The notes under the pieces: generated by a model | Databases searched by the model: none | What the model was told of the DNA's origin: nothing | The model's input: the letters and a program-made list of their open reading frames with translations, nothing else | Origin: a virus | Length of the DNA stretch: 17,046 nucleotides | IMG/VR virus record: IMGVR_UViG_3300045988_127000 | Coordinates: 1 to 17,046 of that record | Strand: one strand, 5' to 3' | In this document: positions 1-17,046 of the stretch, one piece after another | Layout: each line of letters begins with the position of its first letter | Position numbering within the stretch: position 1 is the stretch's first letter | Program-made: the position numbers and the translations under genes

Positions 1-415
1 GTTGCCCCCTTAGGGGTTCCCCAAGAGCTCGGCACCTGGAACACGCTCGCGATCTCGTCAACCGGTGCACGCTCGTCCACTCATGCGAGAAACCATTGCA
101 CCCTTACAGCCAACCTCACACCACCTATCACAAACCTCACATCGCCAAAATTCACAACCCTTGTAAAAAATTACCTCAACACGCCTAAAGAAATGGCATG
201 AGCCTATAACTACTCATACCATTTCTATAATATATTCAAGCGGTTCGACTTCTTCCGAAGTCCTTTCATCTATTCCTATCGCTTCGCGATCACCTGCGCC
301 TGTTATATATTTATAAGGTTCTGGCCCTACCAGGGTCGTTCAATCATTTGTGTCGCTATGCGATCTCATGGCCGATGGCTCATTCCATCGCTTGCGACCG
401 GCCCACCCTAAACCA
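1..415. repeat. Left inverted terminal repeat (ITR), 415 bp, non-coding
   Basis: Positions 1-415 are the exact reverse complement of 16632-17046, checked by eye across the whole block. Identity breaks after cctaaacca at 415. No ORF with an RBS is present. The segment is GC-rich relative to the rest of the window. Confidence 0.93.
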
Positions 416-426
416 AGAGTTCAAGC

Positions 427-1446
427 CTAGAAGAGGGCTAGATACCTATTAATAATATCCTTTGTGCTATGGTCGTTATAGTATACATTTCCTACCCTAT
501 AATTTCGAACGATCATAGATAGCACTCGATCATTTCGCCAGCCTTTCGAAAGAATCATATTTTCGCGCATATCTTTTCCAATCGAATACACAGCTGGATA
601 GTCCATGTTTACATTTCGATTGATGAAAATTTTTCCCTCTGTAAAATCGACATAACAACCAAAATAAATACCATCTGCGTATATTGTGCAAATATATTTA
701 GCATTTGGTGTCATACGCATGATAAAATCATTTGTATCATACGCAAATTCACCTGAATTATAATCACCATATCGTGTACCGCTTATCAGTTTTTGAAACG
801 ATGATTTTTCCTGCGATCCTTTATCATAATCATCACCACAATTTTGAATCAATATTTGTTCTTTCATCATGGACCCTTTAAAGGTATTAAATTCCTTTGC
901 CGGGTTCACACTGATATTAAAATAATTAAAATACGGGTTGGAAATACTTGTTTTATTGGCCAGTAAATACACATGGCCTTCACGCTGCCTGAAAATGGAA
1001 TCAATGGCATTTAAAAATAATTCTACTTCATTTGGTATGTATAAATTATATCCGCCTTTTTCCGGTAAAAACTCATCAAAAATAATGGTGTCCACGTTCA
1101 CGAAAGAGGAAGATTTTAATGTTTTATAGCGTGATAGTGGCATAGCATAGCCACAAATTTCATCATTGATATAAAATTTATTGTACTTCTTGCCACCTTT
1201 GACACTTAGTTCATCTTCTGGAAATTCATGTGCAATATCATTGAAAAATGTGTCTATAGTGCTCATGTCGGTCGTGTGTCTTTTAAAATAGAAAAACTGT
1301 TTTCCCGTCTTTTTGTAATGTTTGATACTGTCCACTTTAAAACCATACGTTTTACCAATTCCACGTCCGCCCACGATGAAATTGATAAATTTATTGTAGG
1401 ATTTCACTCTGGACGGAACGTAGAAATGAAAACGTTTTTCAGACAT
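427..1446 (-). CDS. DNA encapsidation (packaging) ATPase, phi29 gp16-like
   Basis: 339 aa. Walker A FIVGGRGIGKTYG and Walker B TIIFDEF. Strong colinear similarity to the phi29 gp16 N-terminal region that I recall (NFVIGARGIGKSY...FNDVAQEFPDHEL...STIVFDEFI...YIPNEV). The start overlaps the upstream stop (TAATG). Confidence 0.9.
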   Translation of the reverse strand: MSEKRFHFYVPSRVKSYNKFINFIVGGRGIGKTYGFKVDSIKHYKKTGKQFFYFKRHTTDMSTIDTFFNDIAHEFPEDELSVKGGKKYNKFYINDEICGYAMPLSRYKTLKSSSFVNVDTIIFDEFLPEKGGYNLYIPNEVELFLNAIDSIFRQREGHVYLLANKTSISNPYFNYFNISVNPAKEFNTFKGSMMKEQILIQNCGDDYDKGSQEKSSFQKLISGTRYGDYNSGEFAYDTNDFIMRMTPNAKYICTIYADGIYFGCYVDFTEGKIFINRNVNMDYPAVYSIGKDMRENMILSKGWRNDRVLSMIVRNYRVGNVYYNDHSTKDIINRYLALF

Positions 1447-2207
1447 TAGGCAACCTCAATCAAAGGCGGACAGTTTACCCAGATTCCATTTATTTTACAG
1501 CGATTGGTTGGTATATCAACCTTTTCAACACGTGAACGTGTCAGATACACACGTGCATTTGTGTTCATCAATACATTATCCAATGCACCATCGGAATGAT
1601 CATATTCTTCCACTAATGAAATTGGATACCAACCACCTAATTCTTTAAGATAGCAACACAAGGCACCTTCTTTTACCTGCAATCCTTGATCGCCAATTTT
1701 CATTGGAATGGATGTAACATAACTTCCAACGTGTAATATCTGATCAACTAATTCATTGACAGGTAAAATCTGATTACTACTGTTGTCAATGTTCTTCAGA
1801 CGGAACGCATAATAAAATGTCGCTGAATATGGTAGTTTTGCCAAGTTAAACGCGCCATTTTTTCCGCCCTGGTTCTGGCCTAAAAACCAGCCATACCCGT
1901 CACCATTGTCATGGTCGAAAATCGCCACATGGCTGTAGGGTGTCCAGTTTGGTGTTTCTTTGAAAAAACACAAGTCACCCGGCTGCATCGTATAGATCGC
2001 ATTGAAATATTTTAAAAGATTGTTTGAATTGCGATTATTGTATATATCTTTCACATATCCACTGACTGTACAATGATCATAAGGCACGCCATTTTCAACA
2101 CAAAACTTAACATAACCATCCCAGCACTGATATTTTTGATAGCTAGGAAAATTATCAAAATCAAATGCTTTTCCTATTACCAAATTTTTAAATTGTTCAT
2201 AGTTCAT
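1446..2207 (-). CDS. Endolysin with N-terminal CHAP domain plus C-terminal putative SH3-like cell-wall-binding domain
   Basis: 253 aa. CHAP catalytic Cys context [14 protein letters not shown] and His context [10 protein letters not shown]...[27 protein letters not shown] precedes the ATG. The CDS sits next to the packaging ATPase, where phi29-like phages keep their lysin. Confidence 0.65.
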   Translation of the reverse strand: [253 protein letters not shown]

Positions 2208-2221
2208 TGTCTCACCTTCTT

Positions 2222-2947
2222 TTAGTAAATGTTGTAAAATAAACCATAGTCCAGCATTTCATCATATAAATTGGTTTCCAGTGTTATGATCGCATCGCGT
2301 GAGCCTTGTAACACTTCGGCCAGAGTCTGCACACCAATGTTTCCCTCACGATGAAATTTATAGTCTTCATTCGCATCCGTTTCACTCTTGCTTCCAGGCT
2401 CACTAATTTGCTGGACGATACTGTCCACGTAGTTTGTTCCTTCAAGATCCAAACGGCCTTGCGGTGTCGAACTTGTCAAATTGGTTGCCTTGTCTTTTCC
2501 AGAGCTGGAAGAGCTTCCGGTATTCTGTCTTGTATATTCTTCATCATAGCTGGTATTAAAAGTAGGGTTTTCCTGATCCTGAAAAGGAATGGTTTTAAAC
2601 AAGCTGAAATAACGTGGCATGTTGATGATCATCCAGTGTTTTAATTCTCTATGCCAGTATGCATAGGTCTCTTGTCCGATTTCATCAAAGAAAAAATGAT
2701 TCAAGATACCGGTTTCCAGTTCTTTTTTTGATACATACCCTTTTTCATTGATCATATCCTCTGTATAGAATTGATAGTCAAAATCAAAAATTTTCGGCCT
2801 TGCCAATTCTAAGATCTCATCATCGCTCAATGTATACCCACTTTCAATGATTTCTTTATGACAGAGTGCATAGCATACCCCTTGTATTGTTTCTGTGTAT
2901 TTGGCGCCCGTCACAGGCACAAGGCACGGTTTAAATGGTTTATACAT
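2222..2947 (-). CDS. Putative lower collar / tail tube protein (gp11 position). The ATG start is set at 2947; the ORF track extends to a GTG at 2956.
   Basis: Immediately downstream of the connector gene in the conserved phi29 order 9-10-11. RBS [12 protein letters not shown] with an ATG 5 nt after it. No sequence-level match recalled, so the call rests on synteny and size. Confidence 0.5.
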   Translation of the reverse strand: MYKPFKPCLVPVTGAKYTETIQGVCYALCHKEIIESGYTLSDDEILELARPKIFDFDYQFYTEDMINEKGYVSKKELETGILNHFFFDEIGQETYAYWHRELKHWMIINMPRYFSLFKTIPFQDQENPTFNTSYDEEYTRQNTGSSSSSGKDKATNLTSSTPQGRLDLEGTNYVDSIVQQISEPGSKSETDANEDYKFHREGNIGVQTLAEVLQGSRDAIITLETNLYDEMLDYGLFYNIY

Positions 2948-3827
2948 TTTCATCACCTTCTTCCAGGCTTGCCATTTCTTCCAAACTCATGTCGTTTACT
3001 TCCATCATGTCCAGCATGTCATTATACGCTCGAAAACTTACTTTTACGTTGGTTCCAAATTTCTGATTGAATGCATCGACCGCTTTTTGACGTTCTGCAA
3101 GCCAAATGTTTCTCGATGCAATGATCTGTGTGTTGTTGGCATAGACTTCAGCACTCTGCACACGTTCTCTCTTGTCCTGGTTGGCATTGTCAATGCCTAA
3201 AAATGTCATGCATTCTCTTAGAATGGTTTGTTTGACATCGTTCACATCCATGGCCACAAATGGCGCCTGTGTCGGCAGCACTTGTAGCATGCTCATAATA
3301 TCTAAATTTTTAGCAGTGAATATCGCACGTACACCACTTCGCACCTTTTTTATAAAATTATTAAATTGGTTCAACATGCGTTTATCCCCTTGAATGATGT
3401 ACGGTGTCCATTGTGCATCCAGATTGACGTTGATTGTCTCGGATGCAAGCGCCAGCTGTTTGGCATAGTATTGCAATTGAGGTAGTAATGGCGCATATAA
3501 AGGGGAATTTTTAAACAATATTACATCTTCGGCGTTATAGGTTCCGGTCAATTCACCCGTTGGATCCACACCACGATAGGCGGTCGGCATGTAATAATGA
3601 TTCAGCTTACCACCGATCGTACATTCTAAAGCGGTCGGGCCAAAACGTTCATCATCAATGATGATGCATAGTCCTCTTGTCTGCATGATAAATTCCAAAT
3701 AAAACGTGTCTACGCTTTTTGGCATGTCTGTATATTCAAACATGTTCAATGCTATATTGAAAAGATAGCTCAAATATAGATGCTCAAGGCTTGTCTTTTC
3801 ATCGGAAATAAAATCTGTTGGTAACAT
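2940..3827 (-). CDS. Head-tail connector (upper collar / portal) protein, phi29 gp10-like
   Basis: 295 aa. The segment ...QTILRECMTFLGIDNANQDKRERVQSAEV... closely matches phi29 gp10 ...[25 protein letters not shown].... Overall length and position match. Confidence 0.88.
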   Translation of the reverse strand: MLPTDFISDEKTSLEHLYLSYLFNIALNMFEYTDMPKSVDTFYLEFIMQTRGLCIIIDDERFGPTALECTIGGKLNHYYMPTAYRGVDPTGELTGTYNAEDVILFKNSPLYAPLLPQLQYYAKQLALASETINVNLDAQWTPYIIQGDKRMLNQFNNFIKKVRSGVRAIFTAKNLDIMSMLQVLPTQAPFVAMDVNDVKQTILRECMTFLGIDNANQDKRERVQSAEVYANNTQIIASRNIWLAERQKAVDAFNQKFGTNVKVSFRAYNDMLDMMEVNDMSLEEMASLEEGDENV

Positions 3828-6029
3828 TTAAATATCCCCCTTTCGGTTTCCAAATTTATCATTGTCATGCGGGTCATTCAAAGGTCGATTGTTTTTTGTA
3901 TAATCGCAAATATCTTTCGTATGCCATAAGGTCACACCATTATCCAGACAACGCTTTATTTTTTCCAGATCTTGCGGGTCGATATCCCCGCCTTTCATAT
4001 TGACTTTCACAGTCTGTATATAGTTCCAGTATTGTCTGGTGTGCAAGTTTGGCATTTTGGTTAGATTGGTCGAATAACCACGAACATTGAATACTTGGCT
4101 GGCTCTTTCTATATATTCATCGGTTGGCGTGTAGATAAATAATATAGGTGTCTGCAAGCCTAAAGAAATCACGCGATAAATGTTTGAACCACCACAGACG
4201 ATGCTGTCGGCTGTCGCGTTGGCATCATGGATCTTCGCTTGATAACTTTCAATTGCATTTTGAATGTTTGTTTCAGCTTGGTATTTGGTTGTGGTGTTTC
4301 TTAATGCGTTCTGCACCGCTGTTATCTGACTGTTTGCATTGTTCTGTAAACTTGCATTGTTCATCGCATTGGCGTTCTGTGCCTGCATCGTCAAATTGTT
4401 GGCCTGCATCTGGGCGGCTGTGTTTGACACATTTGCAAAACCACCAATTAAGGATCCAACCGCTCCGCCAAGGTTTCCTGTTAGTAAATTTCCGGCTGCA
4501 CTTCCAAGACTTCCGGCAAGACCAGACCACATACCAACATTGGCCACTTGATTTTGAATGCCCGTTAGCTGACTGTTTAACATGTTATTGTTAGCAGTCA
4601 TTTGTGATCGCATAGCATTTTGAATACCGGTCTGCTGGCTCATTGCCTGTCCGGTTGCGCTGGCAATGCGCATGCTTGTCTCATTGCTTCGAATGGTATT
4701 CGACACACCCACATTCATGCTGTTTTTACTTGTCTGCATCAAAACCGCTGTGTAGTCCGAAACAATAGGCAAGGCTAGTTCGTAGCCATCTTCAAAGGCA
4801 TCATTCATTCCATTTAGGTTATTGTTGCCATAAAGATCTTGTTTTTTAACCTTGTAATTTTCTGGTATATAGTCGACTTTGGAAGTGTCAATACTTCCCA
4901 CGATCAGAAAACGTATATTTGTTAAATCGTCAAATAATTCATGTTGATACACTTTGGATGTTCCGTTCATATTCGATAAAATACTAAAACTGAAAGGGCT
5001 GAACATTAATTTTGTTTCTTTCAAAAAATCTAGGTTTAAAAGAATATTGAAAGGGTTGGTGTATTCTCTTTCAACATTGATAGACGCGTCATTTGAGTAG
5101 ACACTATTTAAAGGAAGGCTGGAAGGCCGCAAGAAAGTATAATCACCTTCTTTTACAACATTATATCCTTGTTTGGCTACGATTCGTTTATGCGTTCCAG
5201 CGTATTCAGAACGCAAGCCATATAATGCATTGGTTACGATGATACTTGAACATTTGTTCACAAAATTTTCATCATTTCGAATTAGATTATAAACTGTCTG
5301 GAAGGCGGTTAAATTGCTTTCCGTTCCATCTTTTAATACAACAAAACCGTCTTGAATACCGCCGCCGGTCGTCAAATCAAACGGAAAGATATAATGATAC
5401 AGCTGTGTAGGCACACCGTGTTCCAGTGTTGCACTATCCGCCTGATTAAAATGTTGGCTCATCGTGATAACGATGTAACTTATATCGGCTTGTGCGCTTT
5501 CTATATTTGCATTTCTTCGGCACACAAGATTATCACCAATTTCGATGTTTTCCGGTTGTGTATTGATGCATGGTAGTCTGGTTCCTTCATCATTGTAATA
5601 CCACAGCTCACGATGCTCATAGGCAACAAAACTAGGCAGTATATCCTTTTCGATCTCGAAACGCCATGTTTGCATGACATCCGTTTCAAATTGAATCGAT
5701 GTGACATTATCGGAAACGTATGCAATGGATGTGATAAAACAATATATCCATTTGGACCCGTTTCCCGTCTTTTTATTGCGATACATCATGTAGTTATAGG
5801 TACGAAGATCATCAAATGCACCATCTACCAGAACGACACCATTGGCGCGCTGGTAAGTATAATTATCATAGGTTATCTTTTGATTTTCAAAGTTATTCAT
5901 ATAAAAATTATACTGTTCTTCCGGCGTGCTGAAACATCCCCAGTACGTATTATTCATTGCGTCACACTCTACACCTTTCAATAATATAATGGTCGTGTCG
6001 GGTGTAAATTGACTGTTTAATATTGGCAT
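3828..6029 (-). CDS. Tail knob / distal tube protein, phi29 gp9-like, with internal Gly-zipper hydrophobic loop
   Basis: 733 aa. N-terminal region GSKWIYCFITSIAYVSDNVTSIQFETDVMQTWRFEIEKDILPSFVAYEHRELW matches phi29 gp9 [71 protein letters not shown]. Confidence 0.9.
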   Translation of the reverse strand: MPILNSQFTPDTTIILLKGVECDAMNNTYWGCFSTPEEQYNFYMNNFENQKITYDNYTYQRANGVVLVDGAFDDLRTYNYMMYRNKKTGNGSKWIYCFITSIAYVSDNVTSIQFETDVMQTWRFEIEKDILPSFVAYEHRELWYYNDEGTRLPCINTQPENIEIGDNLVCRRNANIESAQADISYIVITMSQHFNQADSATLEHGVPTQLYHYIFPFDLTTGGGIQDGFVVLKDGTESNLTAFQTVYNLIRNDENFVNKCSSIIVTNALYGLRSEYAGTHKRIVAKQGYNVVKEGDYTFLRPSSLPLNSVYSNDASINVEREYTNPFNILLNLDFLKETKLMFSPFSFSILSNMNGTSKVYQHELFDDLTNIRFLIVGSIDTSKVDYIPENYKVKKQDLYGNNNLNGMNDAFEDGYELALPIVSDYTAVLMQTSKNSMNVGVSNTIRSNETSMRIASATGQAMSQQTGIQNAMRSQMTANNNMLNSQLTGIQNQVANVGMWSGLAGSLGSAAGNLLTGNLGGAVGSLIGGFANVSNTAAQMQANNLTMQAQNANAMNNASLQNNANSQITAVQNALRNTTTKYQAETNIQNAIESYQAKIHDANATADSIVCGGSNIYRVISLGLQTPILFIYTPTDEYIERASQVFNVRGYSTNLTKMPNLHTRQYWNYIQTVKVNMKGGDIDPQDLEKIKRCLDNGVTLWHTKDICDYTKNNRPLNDPHDNDKFGNRKGDI

Positions 6030-7307: not shown

Positions 7308-7505
7308 CTAGGAAAATAATTCCCCTAGCTCTTTTAGTTTCTGTTCGCAAACATCCGCGCGTTCCTTCATCCCATGCGCATGAAAGATCTTGATGCAGCG
7401 CATGTAAAATTCTTGATAAAACTCTTTTTCGTGTCCTTCCGGCAAAGAATATGGAATATCTTCCGGTTTGTTCATATTTTCCAAGGCTTTAAATTGGCAT
7501 GTCAT
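7308..7505 (-). CDS. Hypothetical small protein (65 aa)
   Basis: ORF with ATGA start/stop overlap to the upstream gene. [17 protein letters not shown] in the gap to the lysin gene downstream (7281-7307). No recognisable domain. Confidence 0.45.
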   Translation of the reverse strand: MTCQFKALENMNKPEDIPYSLPEGHEKEFYQEFYMRCIKIFHAHGMKERADVCEQKLKELGELFS

Positions 7506-8125
7506 TCTGCAACCTCAAAATAGTTACCAACTAAACTAGCACAAGTTGCATATAAAGGCTGGCCAGAATCACGTATACATTTATAGATGATACCTTCTTC
7601 CAGATAATATTTACCATTGTATACGGTCATGGTCTGATCATATGGAATAGGATCGTCTATTGTTCCAGCGTTTTCTACATTGATCACTTCCCATAGGCTG
7701 GCTGTGTCGATAGATGGTTTCCAGTTTTCTTGTGATGTGTGCGCTTGACGACATTTCCACAACTTGTCATCACATAATACACGATCTCCCACTTTATACA
7801 CTGTATCTGTTTTCCAAGGATCGTAGCATAAAAGAAGTTTAGCCGCTTCCGTATCCGACAATTCAACCAAAAACGAAGCTCTAGCACTTGCGAACATCAT
7901 TTGTTCTAATGTTGCTTCCTGTTCTGATTTTTCTGTTTCTTTTGTGTGATAAAATTCTTCCTTTTCTTCGGGTGTAAGTTCTACTAATTTACCATCTTGA
8001 TATTTATAGTTGAAAATATCCATTACGTTGAAATCGTCATCAACTTCTACTTCAATACAATCTGAAAATTTAAAGCTCTCGACACTCAAAATTTTATTAT
8101 TTTCTTCTCGAACAAAAATAATCAT
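7502..8125 (-). CDS. Putative structural / receptor-binding protein with CBM5/12 (chitin-binding type 3-like) carbohydrate-binding domain
   Basis: 207 aa. DPWKTDTVYKVGDRVLCDDKLWKCRQAHTSQENWKPSIDTASLWEV fits the CBM5/12 consensus (AWxxxTxYxxGDxVxYxGxxYxCxQxHTSxxxWxPSxxxALW). A degenerate second copy is YDQTMTVYNGKYYLEEGIIYKCIRDSGQP. ATGA overlap with the upstream gene. Confidence 0.55.
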   Translation of the reverse strand: MIIFVREENNKILSVESFKFSDCIEVEVDDDFNVMDIFNYKYQDGKLVELTPEEKEEFYHTKETEKSEQEATLEQMMFASARASFLVELSDTEAAKLLLCYDPWKTDTVYKVGDRVLCDDKLWKCRQAHTSQENWKPSIDTASLWEVINVENAGTIDDPIPYDQTMTVYNGKYYLEEGIIYKCIRDSGQPLYATCASLVGNYFEVAE

Positions 8126-8583
8126 GGTGCTATTTCACCTTCCTCTGAATAAACAATTAAAAAGTTAAATCGACAACTTCCTATTGTTCCATTATCAACT
8201 CTAGCATACATAACGTCTCTTCTGTTATCATATGCCATGGCTGGTATATATGCATTATTGCTTGACCAATCGCCTGAAATAACCTGAAACCAAATTTTTT
8301 CATTAAATTTGTTGATCGTTCCAGATAAACCTAACAGTTCCATTAATTGCGCTTTTGTGTATAAATCTATAAAACCGCTGGCTGTTTGCAATTGAAAAAC
8401 TTTCGTTACATATCGCATTGATGTAATGTGTTTATTAATTTTTAGAATTTTATCATTCAAAACTTTTCCTTGTGCAGCACTCAAAGGCTTATTCGTATCA
8501 CTGGAAGTCAATGCATTGACAACGTCCGTATTTTCCAATAGATTACCAGCTAAAGTTCCATCATATTCATAAATTGGTAACAT
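8122..8583 (-). CDS. Putative fibre/appendage protein (153 aa) sharing an N-terminal module with the adjacent ORF
   Basis: N-terminus MLPIYEYDGTLAGNLLENTDVVNALTSSDTNKPLSAAQGKVLNDKI is paralogous to the N-terminus of 8595-8918. Located within the structural module. Confidence 0.5.
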   Translation of the reverse strand: MLPIYEYDGTLAGNLLENTDVVNALTSSDTNKPLSAAQGKVLNDKILKINKHITSMRYVTKVFQLQTASGFIDLYTKAQLMELLGLSGTINKFNEKIWFQVISGDWSSNNAYIPAMAYDNRRDVMYARVDNGTIGSCRFNFLIVYSEEGEIAP

Positions 8584-8594
8584 ACTACCACCAC

Positions 8595-8918
8595 CTATTT
8601 AGCTGGGTTTTCTAAGAACAATGCTTTTTTTAGTTTGGCCTGAAGTCCAGCGATGCTTGTATCTTGCTGTGTATTTTTCTGCTGTACTGATTGAATATCC
8701 GATTTTGCTTGTGTTATATCCGCTTGTGCCTGTTCCACATCACTAACAAGTTGGTCAAATCCATCTGGTGTAGATGTATCAATCAATTCCTTTAATGCTT
8801 TTCCTTGTTCGGCACTTAAAACCTTACTGGTACCACCTGTTGTCAGATTATTGACGATGTCCTTATCTTCTACTAAATTGGCTGCAACTGTACCTTCATA
8901 ATTATATGTCGTTTTCAT
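8595..8918 (-). CDS. Putative fibre/appendage protein (107 aa): shared N-terminal module plus coiled-coil tail
   Basis: MKTTYNYEGTVAANLVEDKDIVNNLTTGGTSKVLSAEQGKALKELI aligns with the N-terminus of the 153-aa neighbour. The C-terminus is Q/A/K-rich and looks like a coiled coil. [19 protein letters not shown]. Confidence 0.5.
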   Translation of the reverse strand: MKTTYNYEGTVAANLVEDKDIVNNLTTGGTSKVLSAEQGKALKELIDTSTPDGFDQLVSDVEQAQADITQAKSDIQSVQQKNTQQDTSIAGLQAKLKKALFLENPAK

Positions 8919-8960
8919 TTTTATTCCTCTCTTTCTAAATGAATTGGTATAGTATTTTCA

Positions 8961-9572
8961 TCATTTTTTTTTTATTTCCTGCAAAGGGTATGCATTGGTT
9001 AAAAAACCACATCGCTGAATCGTATCATTTAATGCATTGATAGAAGTAATAAGCGATTGAATATCTGATTTTAATGCGATCTCATTTTTTACACTTTCGC
9101 CATTTAACCAAACGGGTTTTTCTGACGATGCAATAACAGCATCCAGCGCATTATTTCCTAAAACAATATCCGTCCCATTTTTCTTCAAGATATTATCATC
9201 GTTTTCAAATCGAATGTCGGCATTGTTTCCTAGTTTAAGTGGGCCCGTCATCGTTCCGCCAGACTTGTCTAGTTTCTGATTCCATAAAGGATTTTGTGCA
9301 ATCAGATCGTTTAACGTGCCATCTTCAACCCATTGATTTAAAATTTTCTGTGTTTCTTCTGTAGCAATGTTGGAAATTTTTTCATTCAAAAACTCTTGAA
9401 AATTGTTCCAATCATCTAAAAGTGCATCCATATTTTCATAGACAATGGAAACATAACCTTGTAAATAATTGATGCACTGATATAAATTATATCCCTGATT
9501 GAACGCGGTTACGTTGTTTGATACCACATTTCCCACGTTTGGAAGTGGTTCAAATTTTGGAAGATCAGACAT
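8961..9572 (-). CDS. Tail fibre-like protein with KSGGTMTGPLKL motif. Start is uncertain; the ORF track extends to 9581.
   Basis: Contains LDKSGGTMTGPLKLGNN, the conserved G-x-M-T-G motif seen in phage tail fibres (for example T7 gp17 GGAMTGQLKL). C-terminal coiled-coil-like KSDIQSLITSINALNDTIQ. Ends in a KKK-stop encoded by an A10 run. Confidence 0.5.
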   Translation of the reverse strand: MSDLPKFEPLPNVGNVVSNNVTAFNQGYNLYQCINYLQGYVSIVYENMDALLDDWNNFQEFLNEKISNIATEETQKILNQWVEDGTLNDLIAQNPLWNQKLDKSGGTMTGPLKLGNNADIRFENDDNILKKNGTDIVLGNNALDAVIASSEKPVWLNGESVKNEIALKSDIQSLITSINALNDTIQRCGFLTNAYPLQEIKKK

Positions 9573-9819
9573 TTTCATCACTTCCTTTTAAATCTAAAAT
9601 GGTGTCAATTTTTGCGCTTAACTTTTCCATGACAATGGTATTGTTTTCAATGGTTGTCGTCAGCTTATCGACTTCATTCTTATGTTCATCATTAATTTTA
9701 GTTATTTCTTCTTTATGCGTGTCATTTAAATACTTGACATAATATCCCATGACGCCACACATAACAATTGGAAAACCAACGGTAGAAATTAATTGAACAA
9801 CTGCGTTTGCTGTTTCCAT
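9565..9819 (-). CDS. Putative holin, BhlA/UviB-like. One N-terminal TM followed by a charged coiled-coil; 85 aa from the internal start.
   Basis: METANAVVQLISTVGFPIVMCGVMGYYVKYL... forms a single hydrophobic TM, then a K/E-rich tail. A near-perfect [17 protein letters not shown] precedes the ATG at 9819. The 111-aa extension in the ORF track lacks an RBS and runs into the terminator. Confidence 0.45.
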   Translation of the reverse strand: METANAVVQLISTVGFPIVMCGVMGYYVKYLNDTHKEEITKINDEHKNEVDKLTTTIENNTIVMEKLSAKIDTILDLKGSDENV

Positions 9820-9850
9820 GGTATCACCTCTTTTTCTATACTTATAATAA

Positions 9851-9877
9851 ACAAAAAAGCCACTTTGTGCAAGTGGC
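9851..9877 (-). terminator. Rho-independent terminator (minus-strand transcripts), upstream of holin RBS
   Basis: 7-bp stem gccactt / aagtggc with a 5-nt loop, followed on the minus strand by TTTTTTGT. Confidence 0.5.
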
Positions 9878-9992
9878 TCTCTTGTTTTCCAATGGTTCAA
9901 AACCGATTAGAAAGAACTCAAATCTGTTAAAAAGAGTAAAAAGGAGGGTAAGTGTATCTATATGCCTGCTAGACCTTACACCCTTATTATAG

Positions 9993-10020
9993 AAAAGAAA
10001 AAAGGCTTTTGCAAGCCCTT
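9993..10020 (-). terminator. Rho-independent terminator immediately after major capsid gene
   Basis: Minus strand reads stem GGCTT-gcaa-AAGCC with flanking AA/TT pairs, followed by TTTTTTCTTTTC. Sits directly 3' of the capsid stop, the classic attenuation point after the most abundant late gene. Confidence 0.4.
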
Positions 10021-10029
10021 TCTCTGTAT

Positions 10030-11379
10030 TTACGCTACAACGACAACTTGAATCACACTCTGAACACTTGTTTCAACCGTGTCTTTGACAGTCACTGTTT
10101 TCAAGCCAGCTGTTGCACTTCCGTTAGCTGCGATCGTGATTTCTGTTTTGTCATCATTGATTGTTGCTGTCACATTTGGATCACTGGATGTTGCTGTTAC
10201 ATTAACCGATGCATCAATTCCAGATTTCTGGATGCTCATTTTTACCTTTTTGGTTTCATTTGCTTTTAATGTAATGGCATCCGGATTGACTGTGATCCCT
10301 GTAATTTTGTTTTCAGCGCTACCGCTTACAAAAGCGATCGCATTCGCGAAACGACTTGTAGCAATACCTTCCCAGTGATGTAACCAGTAATTCCAATACA
10401 AGCCTTCCCCGTTATACTGTGTATTTACATTGTATTTCTGATCGAATACGCGGTAGATCTCACGATCTACTAACATCGCTTCCACTTTTCCGTTGTCGGT
10501 TTCTGGAAGTGTTGGAATTACCAATACATGTGTTTTAAAGTTGGCAACGTCCAACTGGAATGTCTGTGACAACCATTCAATATTTAAGAAGCTGTTGGAT
10601 TCGGCTGTTAAAATGATATATAGATCATCCAATTCATTCTGTTTGGTCACGCCCATCCCGTTGTATTCATTATGCGGTTCTGTCAAAATGGATGCATACA
10701 TTGTCAATTGTCTTGCTAGATCCTTAGCACTTGCTGTGTCCGTGACAGCGTTTGCTAAGTTGATGATCTTCATATACCCATTTTCATAATGCGTTGTCAG
10801 TGCGGACTTCATATATTTGTAGTCGTCTCGATTGTCACCATTGTACAAGCTGTCCACGATCTTAGCAATCAAACTATTGACACCATCCCAAGTCACAAAA
10901 TAGCTGCGCAAATCATCGTCTGTCACAGTGCTCTTATAAAAGCTTTTTCGATTGACAGTGTAAAACACTGTCTTGATGTCTGGTAATTCGCGTTTAAATA
11001 CATTGGTTTCCGATGCCGCCTGATCATAAGCATGCTCTTTCGCTGCTTCCACAAAGTATTCTTCCATCGTGTAGCCTAAAGGCATGTTCTGCATCTTAAA
11101 TGGCGCTAGTCTGTTTGAAAGAATATTTTTGTGTGCAATGGTACGCCCGATGCGTGTTGCTAAAGTTACCCATTCAGTTGCAAGTTGTTCTGGGTATTCA
11201 AGTAAACCATTCATAAAATCCAAGGAATTGGTTTCTAAAGGATCCCCTACGCTTGCACGGAAATTTTCCGATGCCGCCATGTACATAGAATGTGCTACCT
11301 GCTGGCCAGTTGGTTCAGCTTCCAATCCTAAATTGGTCTGAATTGCCTTAGCCACGTCTTTTGCTGTTGTTTTAGCCAT
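10030..11379 (-). CDS. Major capsid protein, phi29 gp8-like, with C-terminal Big_2 (Ig-like) domain
   Basis: 449 aa. ...GLYWNYWLHHWEGIATSRFANAIAFVSGSAENKITGITVNPDAITL... matches phi29 gp8 ...[45 protein letters not shown].... Earlier blocks (NVFKRELPDIKTVF / VFEREMPNVKTLF) also match. RBS GGAGATGAAGAAAA. Confidence 0.95.
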   Translation of the reverse strand: MAKTTAKDVAKAIQTNLGLEAEPTGQQVAHSMYMAASENFRASVGDPLETNSLDFMNGLLEYPEQLATEWVTLATRIGRTIAHKNILSNRLAPFKMQNMPLGYTMEEYFVEAAKEHAYDQAASETNVFKRELPDIKTVFYTVNRKSFYKSTVTDDDLRSYFVTWDGVNSLIAKIVDSLYNGDNRDDYKYMKSALTTHYENGYMKIINLANAVTDTASAKDLARQLTMYASILTEPHNEYNGMGVTKQNELDDLYIILTAESNSFLNIEWLSQTFQLDVANFKTHVLVIPTLPETDNGKVEAMLVDREIYRVFDQKYNVNTQYNGEGLYWNYWLHHWEGIATSRFANAIAFVSGSAENKITGITVNPDAITLKANETKKVKMSIQKSGIDASVNVTATSSDPNVTATINDDKTEITIAANGSATAGLKTVTVKDTVETSVQSVIQVVVVA

Positions 11380-11401
11380 TTTTCTTCATCTCCATTCTTT
11401 T

Positions 11402-11680
11402 TTAAAACATTTTCTTGATGTTAAAATCACTCGTGTTCTTTTTCTCTTTTTCCTTTGCCTTTTCCGCATCAAATCCCACTTTCATAAATAAACTGGAATT
11501 CGCTTCTACAAGTCGCTCATTCTTGGCTTTCAAGTCGGTGTTTTCTGTTGTCAAAGTTTCGTTGCTTTCAAACAATGATCCTACTTCACCTCGCAATTGA
11601 TCCAACAATGTTGAGCGCTCGGCGCGGTCGTCCTGCTCCAGGACTTGGCCAATCAGAGTGTTCATTTCGTCTTGTGTCAT
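11402..11680 (-). CDS. Head scaffolding protein, phi29 gp7-like
   Basis: 92 aa. RSTLLDQLRGEVGSLFESNETLTTENTDLKAKNERLVEANSSLFMKVGF parallels phi29 gp7 [49 protein letters not shown]. Lies directly upstream of the capsid gene. [20 protein letters not shown]. Confidence 0.78.
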   Translation of the reverse strand: MTQDEMNTLIGQVLEQDDRAERSTLLDQLRGEVGSLFESNETLTTENTDLKAKNERLVEANSSLFMKVGFDAEKAKEKEKKNTSDFNIKKMF

Positions 11681-11689
11681 TCAGTAATC

Positions 11690-11737
11690 ACCTCTTTAAT
11701 TTAATAATATATCACAATTTCTATAAAAGCAAAACAA
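11690..11737 (-). promoter_or_regulatory. Candidate late promoter for the scaffold-capsid operon: -10-like TATATT (11711-11706) with TGTGA upstream and a poor -35
   Basis: Minus strand reads TTTTGCTTTTATAGAAATTGTGATATATTATTAAATTAAAGAGGTGATTACTGA-ATG, between the early terminator and the scaffold RBS. The lack of a good -35 suggests dependence on an activator, as with phi29 A3. Confidence 0.3.
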
Positions 11738-11756
11738 AAAGGCGTTTTCCGCCTTT
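11725..11756 (-). terminator. Rho-independent terminator ending the early (replication) transcript; partly bidirectional
   Basis: 7-bp stem aaaggcg / cgccttt (11738-11744 and 11750-11756) with loop ttttc. The minus strand follows with TTGTTTTGCTTTT. The plus strand also has CTGCTTTTTGG after the stem. Confidence 0.6.
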
Positions 11757-11922
11757 CTGCTTTTTGGTCTTAGAAAAACTAAGAAAGATGAGATTGAAAA
11801 GGATGCAATTAAATGAATGACACTGTATGAGGTGTAATTTTATTCCGGCATGTTTCACCATGATACGCCCGGAACAAGCAACCATTTTGAAATTGCTCCC
11901 CTTCGTGTTAACTATACTATGT

Positions 11923-12111
11923 TTATTTCATTTCGTCAATTTCAATTTGTCTTCGGATGCAAAGACGAACAAATTTTGAAAGCTGGTGCTTTTTCTTGTA
12001 TTCTTCCAGCTTTTCAATCAAAAGCGTGTCATCCTTTGGCACGATGATATTATATCGCTTATAGTGTTCTCTGGTAAATTGATTGATATAGTCGTAGGCT
12101 TTATTTTTCAT
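11923..12111 (-). CDS. Small ribbon-helix-helix-like DNA-binding protein, candidate transcriptional regulator of the early/late switch
   Basis: 62 aa. KRYNIIVPKDDTLLIEKLEEYKKKHQLSKFVRLCIRRQIE fits a beta-strand / helix / helix (RHH, CopG/Arc-like) pattern. It is the last gene of the early operon, just upstream of the late promoter region. Confidence 0.45.
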   Translation of the reverse strand: MKNKAYDYINQFTREHYKRYNIIVPKDDTLLIEKLEEYKKKHQLSKFVRLCIRRQIEIDEMK

Positions 12112-12126
12112 CCTGTCACCTCTTTC

Positions 12127-13941
12127 TTATCGTCTCTTGATCTTGAATTGTGCATCGTATAAAACCACACCGCCAGGCACATGGCTTTTTTTCAAACAGC
12201 CCGGCACGCTCGTTCCAACCTTGAACGTCTCAAATGTTATGTTCTGCTTGGCGCTTTCTGTCATGCCGGCGCATTTTACATTCAACCGGTATGCGATTCC
12301 CTCACGCAAATACACAAGATTGTCCTTCTTGTCATGGTCTTCGATAAAGGCACGCTGGCGTTCGTTATATTCATTGTAAGAAATTTCAATTTCTTCAATA
12401 TATGTTTTTGCACCTACAAAATAGGCACGTTTGAATACACTTTCCAGCCCCCAAAAACCAAGTTCTTTATCATCTATAACATCCTTTATTGCATCTGGTA
12501 CATCCGTTCCTACCAGATGGATGGAATCAGTGTCAATATACGCCACGCGGTCGATTCCTACTTTCTGGGCGGTTAAGATCGTATACTTTCGCGCATAGGC
12601 TGTTACAAATGTTGCGTAAGGCAAATAGATAGGGTCACGCATTTCTGTGTCAATTTCTTCCGTGATTTCGTCTGTTTCCGGATTCCACACCTTGATTTTT
12701 GGCTCGGCCATTCGCAGCACACCTTCTTCATCCAGATAAGGTATTTTTGGTGTCACATCCGGGTTTGTTGCAAACTTCCCATACACAGAGTTCATTTTTC
12801 TTTTCGCGATGAAACGTTTGGCACCTTTTTCCTTTTTCTTGACTTCCATGCATTCCTCAATAAAAGGTCGGGCAACGCCCACATTGCCACGAAAATAATA
12901 TCCGCCATTAAAAGAAACATCATACACATCGTATTGATGTTGTATGAGTTCCCAGTCCACACTGGTCAATGTCATGCTGACAACTTCTCCATTCGAGCTA
13001 TCAATATATTCTTTGGATCCGTTATAAATGGTCACCTTGTCCAGTGATATACAAGGTATATGATCCGGTTTGATATCAAACGCAAAATTGACGTTGGCAA
13101 CCCATAAAGGACGCGTTTTCAATATCTCTGGGTTTGGCTCCCCTTCAAAGATCGTAGGCAATCCATAAGGCAACAACTCCAGATACATACGTGAAGGATA
13201 TAAACTATTAACATCAAATACCATGCCATTTTGAATCAGCTTTTCATTGTGTCTTGGATTTGCCCATACAAAACCACCACTATAACTCTGGCGTATATCT
13301 GCATCGCTTTCTAGGCTCAATCCTGGATATAGTTTATTGAACGAATCGCCAAGGCTTTCTTTAAATGCCTTATAACTGGCACCTGTCGCTGTCATTTTGT
13401 TAAAGCCTTCATCAAACAACTGTTCCAGTGCCATTGCTACGATGTCAATGTCATTAAATAGGTATTCTTTTTCCTCTCTGGTTAAAAGGTGTCCGGGTTC
13501 TCGATTGGCATCATAGTCTAGGTGTAGCTTTCGAATCGGTAAATGGAAGTCATGCGCGATCTGTCGAACGCTAAAAGGAATCAACTTCAAACTATCCCAA
13601 ATGGTCGTCTTGATCGTATGCTTTTTTCGTACTTTCCAGTAGATTTCAATCGCATACCACTGCCCAAGATTGGAAATGATCGTGTGAAAACAGCCCTCTT
13701 TTGGGTGTTTGGAATACTTCCACCCGTTTTTAAGCAAATGGCTGATAATAAATTCCCCGTCAAAAGCCAGATTGTGAAAATAGCATTTTATATTTTTCCC
13801 TTGGATCCATTCTATAAACGTCTCAATGGAATTTCCAAAAAGTTTATGATCTGTCTTTCCTACTTCGCTGGCACCCCATGCCCACACTCTACAATCGTTT
13901 GGGTCTGTCGTGGTTTCAAAATCACAAGAATAAACTTGCAC
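12127..13941 (-). CDS. Protein-primed family-B DNA polymerase (phi29 gp2-like); initiates at GTG overlapping the upstream TAG
   Basis: 604 aa. Exo I VYSCDFETTTDPNDCRVWAWG (phi29 MYSCDFETTTKVEDCRVWAYG). Motif A DVNSLYPSRMY. Motif B KMNSVYGKFATNPDVTPKIPYL. Motif C RVAYIDTDSIHL. The start codon at 13941-13939 is GTG. Confidence 0.97.
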   Translation of the reverse strand: MQVYSCDFETTTDPNDCRVWAWGASEVGKTDHKLFGNSIETFIEWIQGKNIKCYFHNLAFDGEFIISHLLKNGWKYSKHPKEGCFHTIISNLGQWYAIEIYWKVRKKHTIKTTIWDSLKLIPFSVRQIAHDFHLPIRKLHLDYDANREPGHLLTREEKEYLFNDIDIVAMALEQLFDEGFNKMTATGASYKAFKESLGDSFNKLYPGLSLESDADIRQSYSGGFVWANPRHNEKLIQNGMVFDVNSLYPSRMYLELLPYGLPTIFEGEPNPEILKTRPLWVANVNFAFDIKPDHIPCISLDKVTIYNGSKEYIDSSNGEVVSMTLTSVDWELIQHQYDVYDVSFNGGYYFRGNVGVARPFIEECMEVKKKEKGAKRFIAKRKMNSVYGKFATNPDVTPKIPYLDEEGVLRMAEPKIKVWNPETDEITEEIDTEMRDPIYLPYATFVTAYARKYTILTAQKVGIDRVAYIDTDSIHLVGTDVPDAIKDVIDDKELGFWGLESVFKRAYFVGAKTYIEEIEISYNEYNERQRAFIEDHDKKDNLVYLREGIAYRLNVKCAGMTESAKQNITFETFKVGTSVPGCLKKSHVPGGVVLYDAQFKIKRR

Positions 13942-14738: not shown

Positions 14739-14773
14739 ATTTTAAAAATAGGCAGAGTGTTTCTGCCTAAATT

Positions 14774-16528: not shown

Positions 16529-16550
16529 GATGTGTCCTCCTCTTTACACC

Positions 16551-16595
16551 ATTATATTACCACAATATATTGCATAATGAAACACCTATTTACAA
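16551..16595 (-). promoter_or_regulatory. Candidate early promoter(s) between the right ITR and the first early gene
   Basis: Minus strand reads TTGTAA-17nt-TGcAATATA, then a second perfect TATAAT (16556-16551) about 20 nt upstream of the RBS of the first early ORF. Confidence 0.4.
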
Positions 16596-16631: not shown

Positions 16632-17046
16632 TGGTTTAGGGTGGGCCGGTCGCAAGCGATGGAATGAGCCATCGGCCATGAGATCGCATAGCGACACAAA
16701 TGATTGAACGACCCTGGTAGGGCCAGAACCTTATAAATATATAACAGGCGCAGGTGATCGCGAAGCGATAGGAATAGATGAAAGGACTTCGGAAGAAGTC
16801 GAACCGCTTGAATATATTATAGAAATGGTATGAGTAGTTATAGGCTCATGCCATTTCTTTAGGCGTGTTGAGGTAATTTTTTACAAGGGTTGTGAATTTT
16901 GGCGATGTGAGGTTTGTGATAGGTGGTGTGAGGTTGGCTGTAAGGGTGCAATGGTTTCTCGCATGAGTGGACGAGCGTGCACCGGTTGACGAGATCGCGA
17001 GCGTGTTCCAGGTGCCGAGCTCTTGGGGAACCCCTAAGGGGGCAAC
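16632..17046. repeat. Right inverted terminal repeat (ITR), 415 bp
   Basis: Reverse complement of positions 1-415. Together with the protein-primed polymerase and candidate terminal protein, this marks the window as a complete linear genome. Confidence 0.93.

Follow-up and report, generated by a model that had tools for sequence, protein, structure and literature searches.

Reviews present the prohead or packaging RNA (pRNA) as peculiar to phi29 and a small number of related Bacillus phages (PMC11476376, PMC5066667). The phi29 pRNA, whose three-way-junction core is represented in Rfam by family RF00044 (Phage_pRNA), is 174 nucleotides (nt) long and is encoded at positions 147 to 320 of the phi29 genome; its domain I, of 117 nt, precedes a linker and a 3' domain, and its CCA bulge binds the phi29 ATPase (PMC5066667). 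A pRNA is also annotated in Bacillus phage GA-1 (NC_002649, misc_RNA 1719-1879, minus strand), where it putatively forms two kissing base pairs only and barely self-associates in vitro (PMC4201828). Here we describe an intergenic element on the minus strand of IMG/VR virus record IMGVR_UViG_3300045988_127000, the 17,046 nt of which were analyzed in full and are referred to below as the window. This element is very probably the gene for a pRNA, a divergent homologue of those of GA-1, B103, and phi29, as judged from its sequence, predicted fold, and gene neighborhood. The pRNA is a known class of RNA, and the element is a divergent member of that class, missed by the Rfam model, in an uncultured lineage.

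A predicted RNA gene downstream of the polymerase

The minus strand at 11721-11910 (190 nt) folds with a free energy of -57.8 kcal/mol, compared with -35.8 +/- 4.5 kcal/mol for 200 dinucleotide shuffles (z = -4.95), none of which (0/200) folded as well. In the minimum free energy (MFE) fold, the 5' part of this sequence forms a three-way junction composed of a closing helix A, a C/E arm, and a D hairpin (Table 1), and GUAU in the CE loop (11866-11863) is complementary to AUAC in the D loop (11828-11825). The nested inverted repeats to which the initial annotation had drawn attention are present on this strand, with TTCCGG (11874-11869) and CCGGAA (11848-11843) enclosing an inner hairpin of CATG (11862-11859), GTGAAA (11858-11853), and CATG (11852-11849), and they turn out to be inner arms, the C helix and the E hairpin, of the larger three-way-junction fold. 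The second hairpin described there, CTTAG-TTTTT-CTAAG at 11783-11769, was likewise recovered and is kept in the closest relatives only. The terminator also holds, and its stem, with a core at 11756-11738, was extended by the scan to 11763-11731, followed by a T-run.

The element is bracketed by its own transcription signals. A sigma-70-type consensus scan identified the promoter TTGACG-17-TATAGT with 10 of 12 matches, and the -10 hexamer ends 6 nt ahead of the first paired base of the closing helix. The -35 hexamer sits in the final codons of the 62-amino-acid (62-aa) open reading frame (ORF) that precedes the element. The terminator starts 33 nt past domain I, and its final U-run starts 67 nt past it, so that the signals together predict an RNA of ~180 nt running from ~11904 to ~11725 on the minus strand; the same terminator is predicted to form the 3' end of early read-through transcripts. 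The element had been placed at the 3' end of the early transcript, which is correct as far as it goes, yet because it has its own promoter directly upstream it represents a transcription unit in its own right.

Similarity to the pRNAs of phi29, GA-1, and B103

Helix A is of identical size in the window and in the Rfam consensus of phi29, with 14 bp and 8 bp separated by a 3-nt bulge that reads UCA in the window and CCA in phi29. The two RNAs also agree in having a three-way junction, in the C helix (9 bp), and in the E hairpin (4-bp helix with a 6-nt loop), and in both the CE bulge lies on the 5' side only and pairs through its 3' end with the D loop. They differ in the lengths of the CE loop (6 nt in the window versus 9 nt in phi29), the D loop (8 nt versus 5 nt), and domain I (109 nt versus 117 nt). 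In the window, as in phi29, the RNA gene follows the terminal protein-polymerase operon and is served by a promoter of its own; the order of terminal protein, polymerase, small ORF or ORFs, and RNA is the same in the window, phi29, and GA-1. Inversion of the early module puts the pRNA gene of phi29 at the left genome end, whereas the window genome is collinear, which accounts for the mid-genome position of the RNA gene here.

The GA-1 pRNA is 42.7% identical to the window element in a model alignment; the two phages differ in host and lineage. Both RNAs begin with (U/G)AAGG paired to YUUU, carry a CE bulge of 6 nt confined to the 5' side, and have a 4-bp E helix closed by a GURAAA hexaloop (GUAAAA in GA-1, GUGAAA in the window). 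The D helix differs, with 8 bp and a 3-nt loop in GA-1 (MFE fold) compared with 4 bp and an 8-nt loop in the window. The GA-1 locus is laid out in the same way: small ORFs follow the polymerase, the last of them is overlapped by the pRNA promoter, and the pRNA is succeeded by a terminator and then by the next promoter. The promoter annotated for the GA-1 pRNA, A1b, is arranged like that of the window, and in GA-1, as in the window, the pRNA gene is located away from the genome end.

These likenesses are matched by reciprocal detection with covariance models. Model R1 was built from a single metagenomic clade with the clade of the window excluded, R2 from the metagenomic family only, and R3 from the annotated GA-1 pRNA only. 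R1 recovered the element at full length as its sole match in the window (32.7 bits, E = 2e-4), and the top match of R3 in an 83.6-kb scan run with no filters was the window at 11794-11904 on the minus strand (29.6 bits, E = 6.2e-5); in the other direction, R2 matched the annotated GA-1 pRNA (45.3 bits, E = 2.8e-9) and the B103 pRNA at its Rfam-confirmed position (21.4 bits, E = 0.0018), with the reservation that E-values of short-calibrated models are rough. R1 also picked up the elements of other metagenomic clades, and the next-ranked matches of R3 were the orthologous elements of relatives L005 and L010. A single generic structural descriptor retrieves the phi29 pRNA and the window element alike. 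A strict descriptor, which gave a few false positives per genome, finds the phi29 pRNA and misses those of B103 and GA-1; it was used as a lead only.

Conservation and covariation among relatives

Loci of relatives were taken from Logan/ENA assemblies and IMG/VR, and their polymerase homologues delimit a metagenomic clade with 59 to 97% identity. In IMG/VR, a pattern scan matched at least 535 contigs that encode polymerase relatives. The usual layout in these relatives is the polymerase, one or more small ORFs, a gap of ~220 to 240 nt, the scaffold gene, and the capsid gene. Descriptor scans and constrained folds found the domain in almost all of them, at lengths of 108 to 118 nt, and most clades of the metagenomic family share the E-loop consensus GURAAA. 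The -10 hexamer ends 6 to 7 nt before helix A in 32 of 32 representative relatives, a terminator lies 33 to 81 nt beyond the domain in all 32, and the RNA lengths predicted for these representatives are 150 to 195 nt. In relative L016 (ENA k141_360214, 7437-12106), the early module is inverted with respect to the late genes, as in phi29, and the RNA gene still follows the polymerase, within ~240 nt of the contig end and with no gene called downstream. Because L016 keeps the RNA after the polymerase in an inverted early module, sequence comparison indicates that the RNA gene travels with the polymerase operon and is not tied to the genome end, and that collinear and divergent genome layouts interconvert within the lineage.

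All of the helices, together with the pairing between the CE and D loops, covary among ~60 distinct relatives. Within a single clade of 55 distinct sequences, in a gap-free alignment in which the loop-loop pairing was counted, 97.7% of cells are paired and 9 pairs show compensatory changes, compared with at most 41% in slid controls. Across clades, MAFFT brought the 5' half and the E hairpin into register but scrambled the 3' half, and its alignment was replaced by alignments guided by covariance models. In the cross-clade alignment fitted to R1, which biases its counts towards the structure, 97.8% of cells are paired, compensatory changes are found in 29 of 33 pairs, and the covariation score is 0.611, compared with 0.198 after shuffling and at most 0.099 after sliding. 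The C helix has compensatory changes in 9 of its 10 pairs in the cross-clade comparison, and helix A shows G-C / G-U / A-U covariation in the closest relatives. With the GA-1 and B103 pRNAs added to the alignment, 94.2% of cells are paired and the compensatory pairs again number 29 of 33.

The CE and D loops are complementary over 4 to 7 nt in every clade of the metagenomic family, compared with the putative two base pairs of GA-1, and, as in phi29, the CE nucleotides involved are always those at the 3' end of the loop. Nine distinct codes were found: GUAU/AUAC in the window, and GCAU/AUGC, UGCAU/AUGCA, UUCAUU/AAUGAA, AUUACU/AGUAAU, GUUUACU/AGUAAAC, UUGCU/AGCAA, UUUUC/GAAAA, and GAACAU/AUGUUC. 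Summed over 10 clade types, the complementarity amounts to 52, compared with 25.8 +/- 4.8 when loops are permuted, and none of 100,000 permutations reaches 52.

The IMG/VR loci (L018-L097, n = 80) come mostly from dataset 3300045988 (74/80), and dozens of related phages in this one dataset carry several kissing codes on RNAs that are otherwise ~93% identical. One clade carries both AUUACU/AGUAAU and GUUUACU/AGUAAAC, which have the core UUACU/AGUAA in common, while L029 has UUUUC/GAAAA; the C helices of these phages also have swapped pairs. Contigs of this single dataset account for eight or more of the nine codes, among them two distinct core specificities. This variety could reflect selection for assembly specificity.

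Table 1. Positions of the predicted RNA gene, its structural parts, and associated genes in the window
Feature	Position	Strand	Remarks
Promoter of RNA gene	11911..11939	minus	-35 TTGACG 11939-11934, 17-nt spacer, -10 TATAGT 11916-11911
pRNA domain I (predicted)	11796..11904	minus	109 nt; three-way junction of helix A, C/E arm, and D hairpin; MFE fold
Helix A, 5' strand	11879..11904	minus	14 bp, 3-nt bulge UCA (11890-11888), 8 bp
Helix A, 3' strand	11796..11819	minus	pairs with 11904-11879; 22 bp in all
C helix, 5' strand UUGUUCCGG	11869..11877	minus	9 bp, including one G-U pair
C helix, 3' strand CCGGAAUAA	11840..11848	minus	pairs with UUGUUCCGG
CE loop GCGUAU	11863..11868	minus	6-nt bulge, 5' side only
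E hairpin	11849..11862	minus	4-bp CAUG/CAUG, 6-nt loop GUGAAA (11858-11853)
D hairpin ACAC-CUCAUACA-GUGU	11820..11835	minus	4-bp stem, 8-nt loop 11831-11824
Small 3' hairpin UCUUAG-UUUUU-CUAAGA	11768..11784	minus	position of phi29 domain II
Intrinsic terminator	11725..11763	minus	14-pair stem 11763-11731, then U-run
Extended -10 TGaTATATT of predicted late promoter	11706..11714	minus	ahead of scaffold gene; read from sequence
Intergenic region with RNA element	242 nt		between 62-aa ORF and scaffold gene
62-aa ORF	11923-12111	minus	no Pfam/PHROG match
Type-B protein-primed DNA polymerase	12127-13941	minus	PHROG 9.7e-149
phi29-type scaffolding protein	11680-11402	minus	PF11418
gp10-type connector	2940..3827	minus	PF05352, 2.6e-50; putative docking site of RNA ring
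gp16-type packaging ATPase	427..1446	minus	PF05894 3.4e-65, full length; PHROG terminase; putative docking partner of helix A

Evaluation of the pRNA assignment and of other readings

Several results weigh against the pRNA assignment or limit its scope. Apart from the roughness of the E-values, the phi29 pRNA itself was detected by neither R1 nor R2, so it is through GA-1 and B103 that the element is directly linked to known pRNAs. The scan with the Rfam pRNA model that the initial annotation had proposed also returned nothing, since RF00044 has no match in the window at its gathering threshold of 100 bits or even at E <= 10. In control searches, RF00044 scored phi29 at 145 bits and B103 at only 50 bits, under the threshold, and did not find the annotated GA-1 pRNA at E <= 1; because the model misses GA-1 and scores B103 below threshold, its silence on the window says little, and for the same reason Rfam-based annotation will miss most pRNAs outside phi29. 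The pairing of the CE and D loops, taken by sequence, would fit a pseudoknot within one molecule as well as a ring of several. Lastly, the window connector, which begins MLPTDFISDEKTSLEH, has a single lysine or arginine among its first 30 residues, whereas the corresponding count is 8 in phi29, 7 in an Enterococcus phage, and 7 in Streptococcus phage Cp-1. The connectors of L005, L010, and L015 are similarly low in lysine and arginine at the N-terminus. In phi29, the N-terminal 14 residues of the connector (gp10) reportedly bind pRNA (Xiao et al. 2005, as listed in the references of PMC9965433), and this basic arm is not present in the window connector. The docking mode of an RNA ring may therefore differ from that of phi29. 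We regard the basic arm as a feature of the phi29 motor and not of the RNA, so that its lack lowers confidence in an identical docking mode only.

Among other readings, an independent structured small RNA whose CE and D loops pair within the molecule as a pseudoknot and whose role lies outside packaging, for example as an early-to-late regulator, a protein-sequestering RNA, or an anti-defence decoy, is improbable. It would account for the dedicated promoter and terminator and for a connector without the phi29 pRNA-binding arm, and the loop-loop covariation is neutral between pairing in cis and in trans, but it leaves unexplained the reciprocal detection with the GA-1 and B103 pRNAs, the architecture and synteny that match theirs, and the lack of any other pRNA candidate in a genome that encodes phi29-type motor proteins. 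We give still less weight to a cis-acting leader or attenuator, similar to a riboswitch, that would govern terminator read-through from early into late genes. Such a reading is suggested by a structured domain with pseudoknot-like loop pairing placed directly before an intrinsic terminator at the early/late boundary. It sits poorly with a dedicated promoter from which, in every relative, the transcript would begin exactly at helix A, with the poorly conserved linker of 11 to 45 nt between the 3' strand of helix A and the terminator, and with late genes that have their own promoter past the terminator; inspection by eye only revealed no alternative pairing between helix A and the terminator. 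Furthermore, the L016 element follows the polymerase at a contig end with no downstream gene called, and the counterpart in Cp-1 lies on the strand opposite to its flanking genes.

The remaining readings are those in which the DNA or a protein product, and not an RNA, is the functional entity. The initial annotation had offered the inverted repeats as possible operators for the adjacent 62-aa protein, a putative ribbon-helix-helix (RHH) regulator that would control the late promoter. The gene does adjoin the element and the TTCCGG...CCGGAA arms are palindromic, yet this reading is barely plausible: the arms can be lengthened only through G-U pairs, which would be G-T mismatches in DNA, and in relatives they are swapped for other sequences (TATCAG/CTGATA, GGTGGG/CCCACC, CCGGGG/CCCCGG) with pairing retained. 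The repeats are also separated from the late promoter, which is downstream of them, by over 100 bp and by a terminator, and the RHH label itself was not borne out, since the 62-aa protein has no match to RHH or to any other Pfam or PHROG family. A protein-coding gene of 54 aa at 11885-11721 merits almost no credence. The ORF exists, starts with ATG, and has a purine-rich stretch upstream, GAAGGGGAG, that had been read as a ribosome-binding site; this stretch is instead part of the 5' strand of helix A, as is the ATG (11885-11883), and both are base-paired there. The reading frame is broken in relatives, being 38 aa long in L001, L002, and L004 and frameshifted in L003, the elements of which are ~95% identical, and it is absent in L005, L008, L010, and L013, which retain the RNA fold. 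The only family match of the ORF was a sub-threshold chance match. Of the functions proposed in the initial annotation, it is the pRNA candidate that has gained support, from architecture, covariation, reciprocal models with GA-1 and B103, and synteny.

Proposed role in genome packaging

The genome encodes what a pRNA would be expected to work with: a protein-primed polymerase, a gp10-type connector, and a gp16-type ATPase. By analogy with phi29, we infer a packaging role and ring formation for the RNA. The CE loop of one RNA copy would pair with the D loop of the next copy and so close a ring, as in phi29 (PMC5066667). By homology with phi29, this ring would be seated on the connector vertex of the prohead, with its helix A spokes docking the gp16-type ATPase, and the docked ATPase would pump the terminal-protein-capped genome into the head. 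As in phi29, the RNA would be needed for packaging and would be released afterwards (PMC5066667).

Genome context

The window is the complete genome, ~17 kb, of a phi29-like podovirus, with inverted terminal repeats (ITRs) of 445 bp and 98% identity at its ends. All of the long ORFs are carried on the minus strand. Read on that strand from the right end, the genome contains small early genes, the SSB gene (PF00436), a gene for a 265-aa protein that occupies the terminal-protein position between SSB and polymerase, the polymerase, and the 62-aa ORF, and downstream of the scaffold gene are the genes for the major capsid protein (11379-10030), tail and lysis functions, the connector, and the packaging ATPase. 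In relatives, small ORFs of 59 to 70 aa take the place of the 62-aa ORF, and TTGACT-17-TATATT takes the place of the predicted late promoter of the window. The polymerase is only 43 to 44% identical to those of the nearest cultured phages (~44% for Bacillus phages), no deposited phage has a capsid protein more than 36% identical to that of the window, and a blastn search with the intergenic region found no DNA-level match among deposited phages.

Further strong sites resembling intrinsic terminators lie on the minus strand after the capsid gene (9996-10025) and after the SSB gene (14749-14769), which suggests that the collinear genome is divided into several transcription units. The sole Rfam match in scans at the gathering threshold and at E <= 10, a weak one to the family ctRNA_p42d, covers the terminator hairpin of the RNA gene only and was dismissed as a terminator look-alike.

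The ITR was examined as an alternative site for a pRNA, and the statement of the initial annotation that none is obvious elsewhere in the genome was upheld. A coarse genome-wide sliding-window scan of z scores cut through helix A, and so under-scored the element, and brought to light a structured ITR. The minus strand of window positions 100-330 (equivalent to 16717-16947 on the plus strand) folds at -73.6 kcal/mol with z = -6.08, and the other strand has z = -4.33; the structured strand reads outward and includes a 15-bp hairpin. It was rejected as a pRNA site, having neither pRNA architecture nor a match to any pRNA model, and its similarity extends to the closest relatives only. Possible explanations are a replication-origin structure or an end-proximal RNA. 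A promoter-like sequence, TTTACA-17-TATATT at 16543-16571 on the plus strand, is found just beyond the boundary of the right ITR and faces outward into that repeat, and it could drive transcription of the structured ITR strand. An outward promoter reading into a terminal region is the arrangement of the phi29 pRNA gene, but the fold of the window ITR is not pRNA-like.

Possible counterparts in Cp-1 and Enterococcus phages

The genome of Streptococcus phage Cp-1 (L100, NC_001825) contains a pRNA-like gene at ~4690-4836 on the minus strand, between orf7 and orf8 (scaffold), that is absent from the RefSeq annotation. It has a promoter, TTGACA-17-TATGAT, followed after 6 nt by a helix A starting GUAAGG, an 11-bp C helix, the CE loop AUGGUUA, and a D loop with UAACCA, giving a 6-nt complementarity (UGGUUA/UAACCA). 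The fold has z = -4.43, and a shared bidirectional terminator comes after it. Unlike the window element, it lies on the strand opposite to its flanking genes, and with R2 it reaches only 13.7 bits (E = 2.7). A putative pRNA in Cp-1 is an older prediction (Martin et al. 1996, as cited in PMC6266182), and the gene described here may correspond to that prediction.

The Enterococcus faecium phages vB_EfaP_2/Chl-5, CUB-FM, and Athos have the polymerase, a small ORF, a gap of ~270 nt, and the scaffold gene in the same order as the window. A promoter and a terminator lie in this gap (4572-4838 in L099, vB_EfaP_2/Chl-5; 331-596 in L101, CUB-FM; also present in Athos), which has no annotated RNA, and between them are a three-way-junction domain of 112 nt, bulged on its 5' side only, and a hairpin. 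Helix A shows one compensatory change from G-C to A-U. The E loop is 8 nt long, the loop-loop complementarity is just 3 to 4 nt, and the element was undetected by R1, R2, R3, and Rfam. In CUB-FM, a coding sequence for a "hypothetical protein", CUBFM_9, is annotated across the RNA element and is probably a miscall.

Implications for phi29-like phages

Placing the element among the pRNAs reveals no new kind of mechanism. What it provides is material for a broader pRNA model, in the form of ~60 distinct natural sequences with nine kissing codes and covarying helices, and such a model would allow pRNA genes to be annotated where the intergenic region is now blank or is called a hypothetical protein. 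The sequences can also be drawn on in RNA nanotechnology, as a source of new three-way junctions and kissing loops. For the phages themselves, the position of the gene appears tied to the polymerase operon rather than to the genome end, and the non-basic N-terminus of the connector suggests that the RNA ring may be anchored differently, which can be tested.

More speculatively, the window element could belong to a broad and hitherto unrecognized branch of packaging RNAs found in many phi29-like phages outside Bacillus, including the metagenomic lineage, the Enterococcus faecium phages, and Cp-1, in which the RNA docks on an arm-less connector in the lineage of the window and the kissing codes serve as labels of assembly specificity. 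We hold this wider proposal as doubtful. If it were true, the contact between RNA and prohead in this lineage would be unlike that in phi29, and labels of 4 to 7 nt could stop co-circulating phages from poisoning each other's motor rings.

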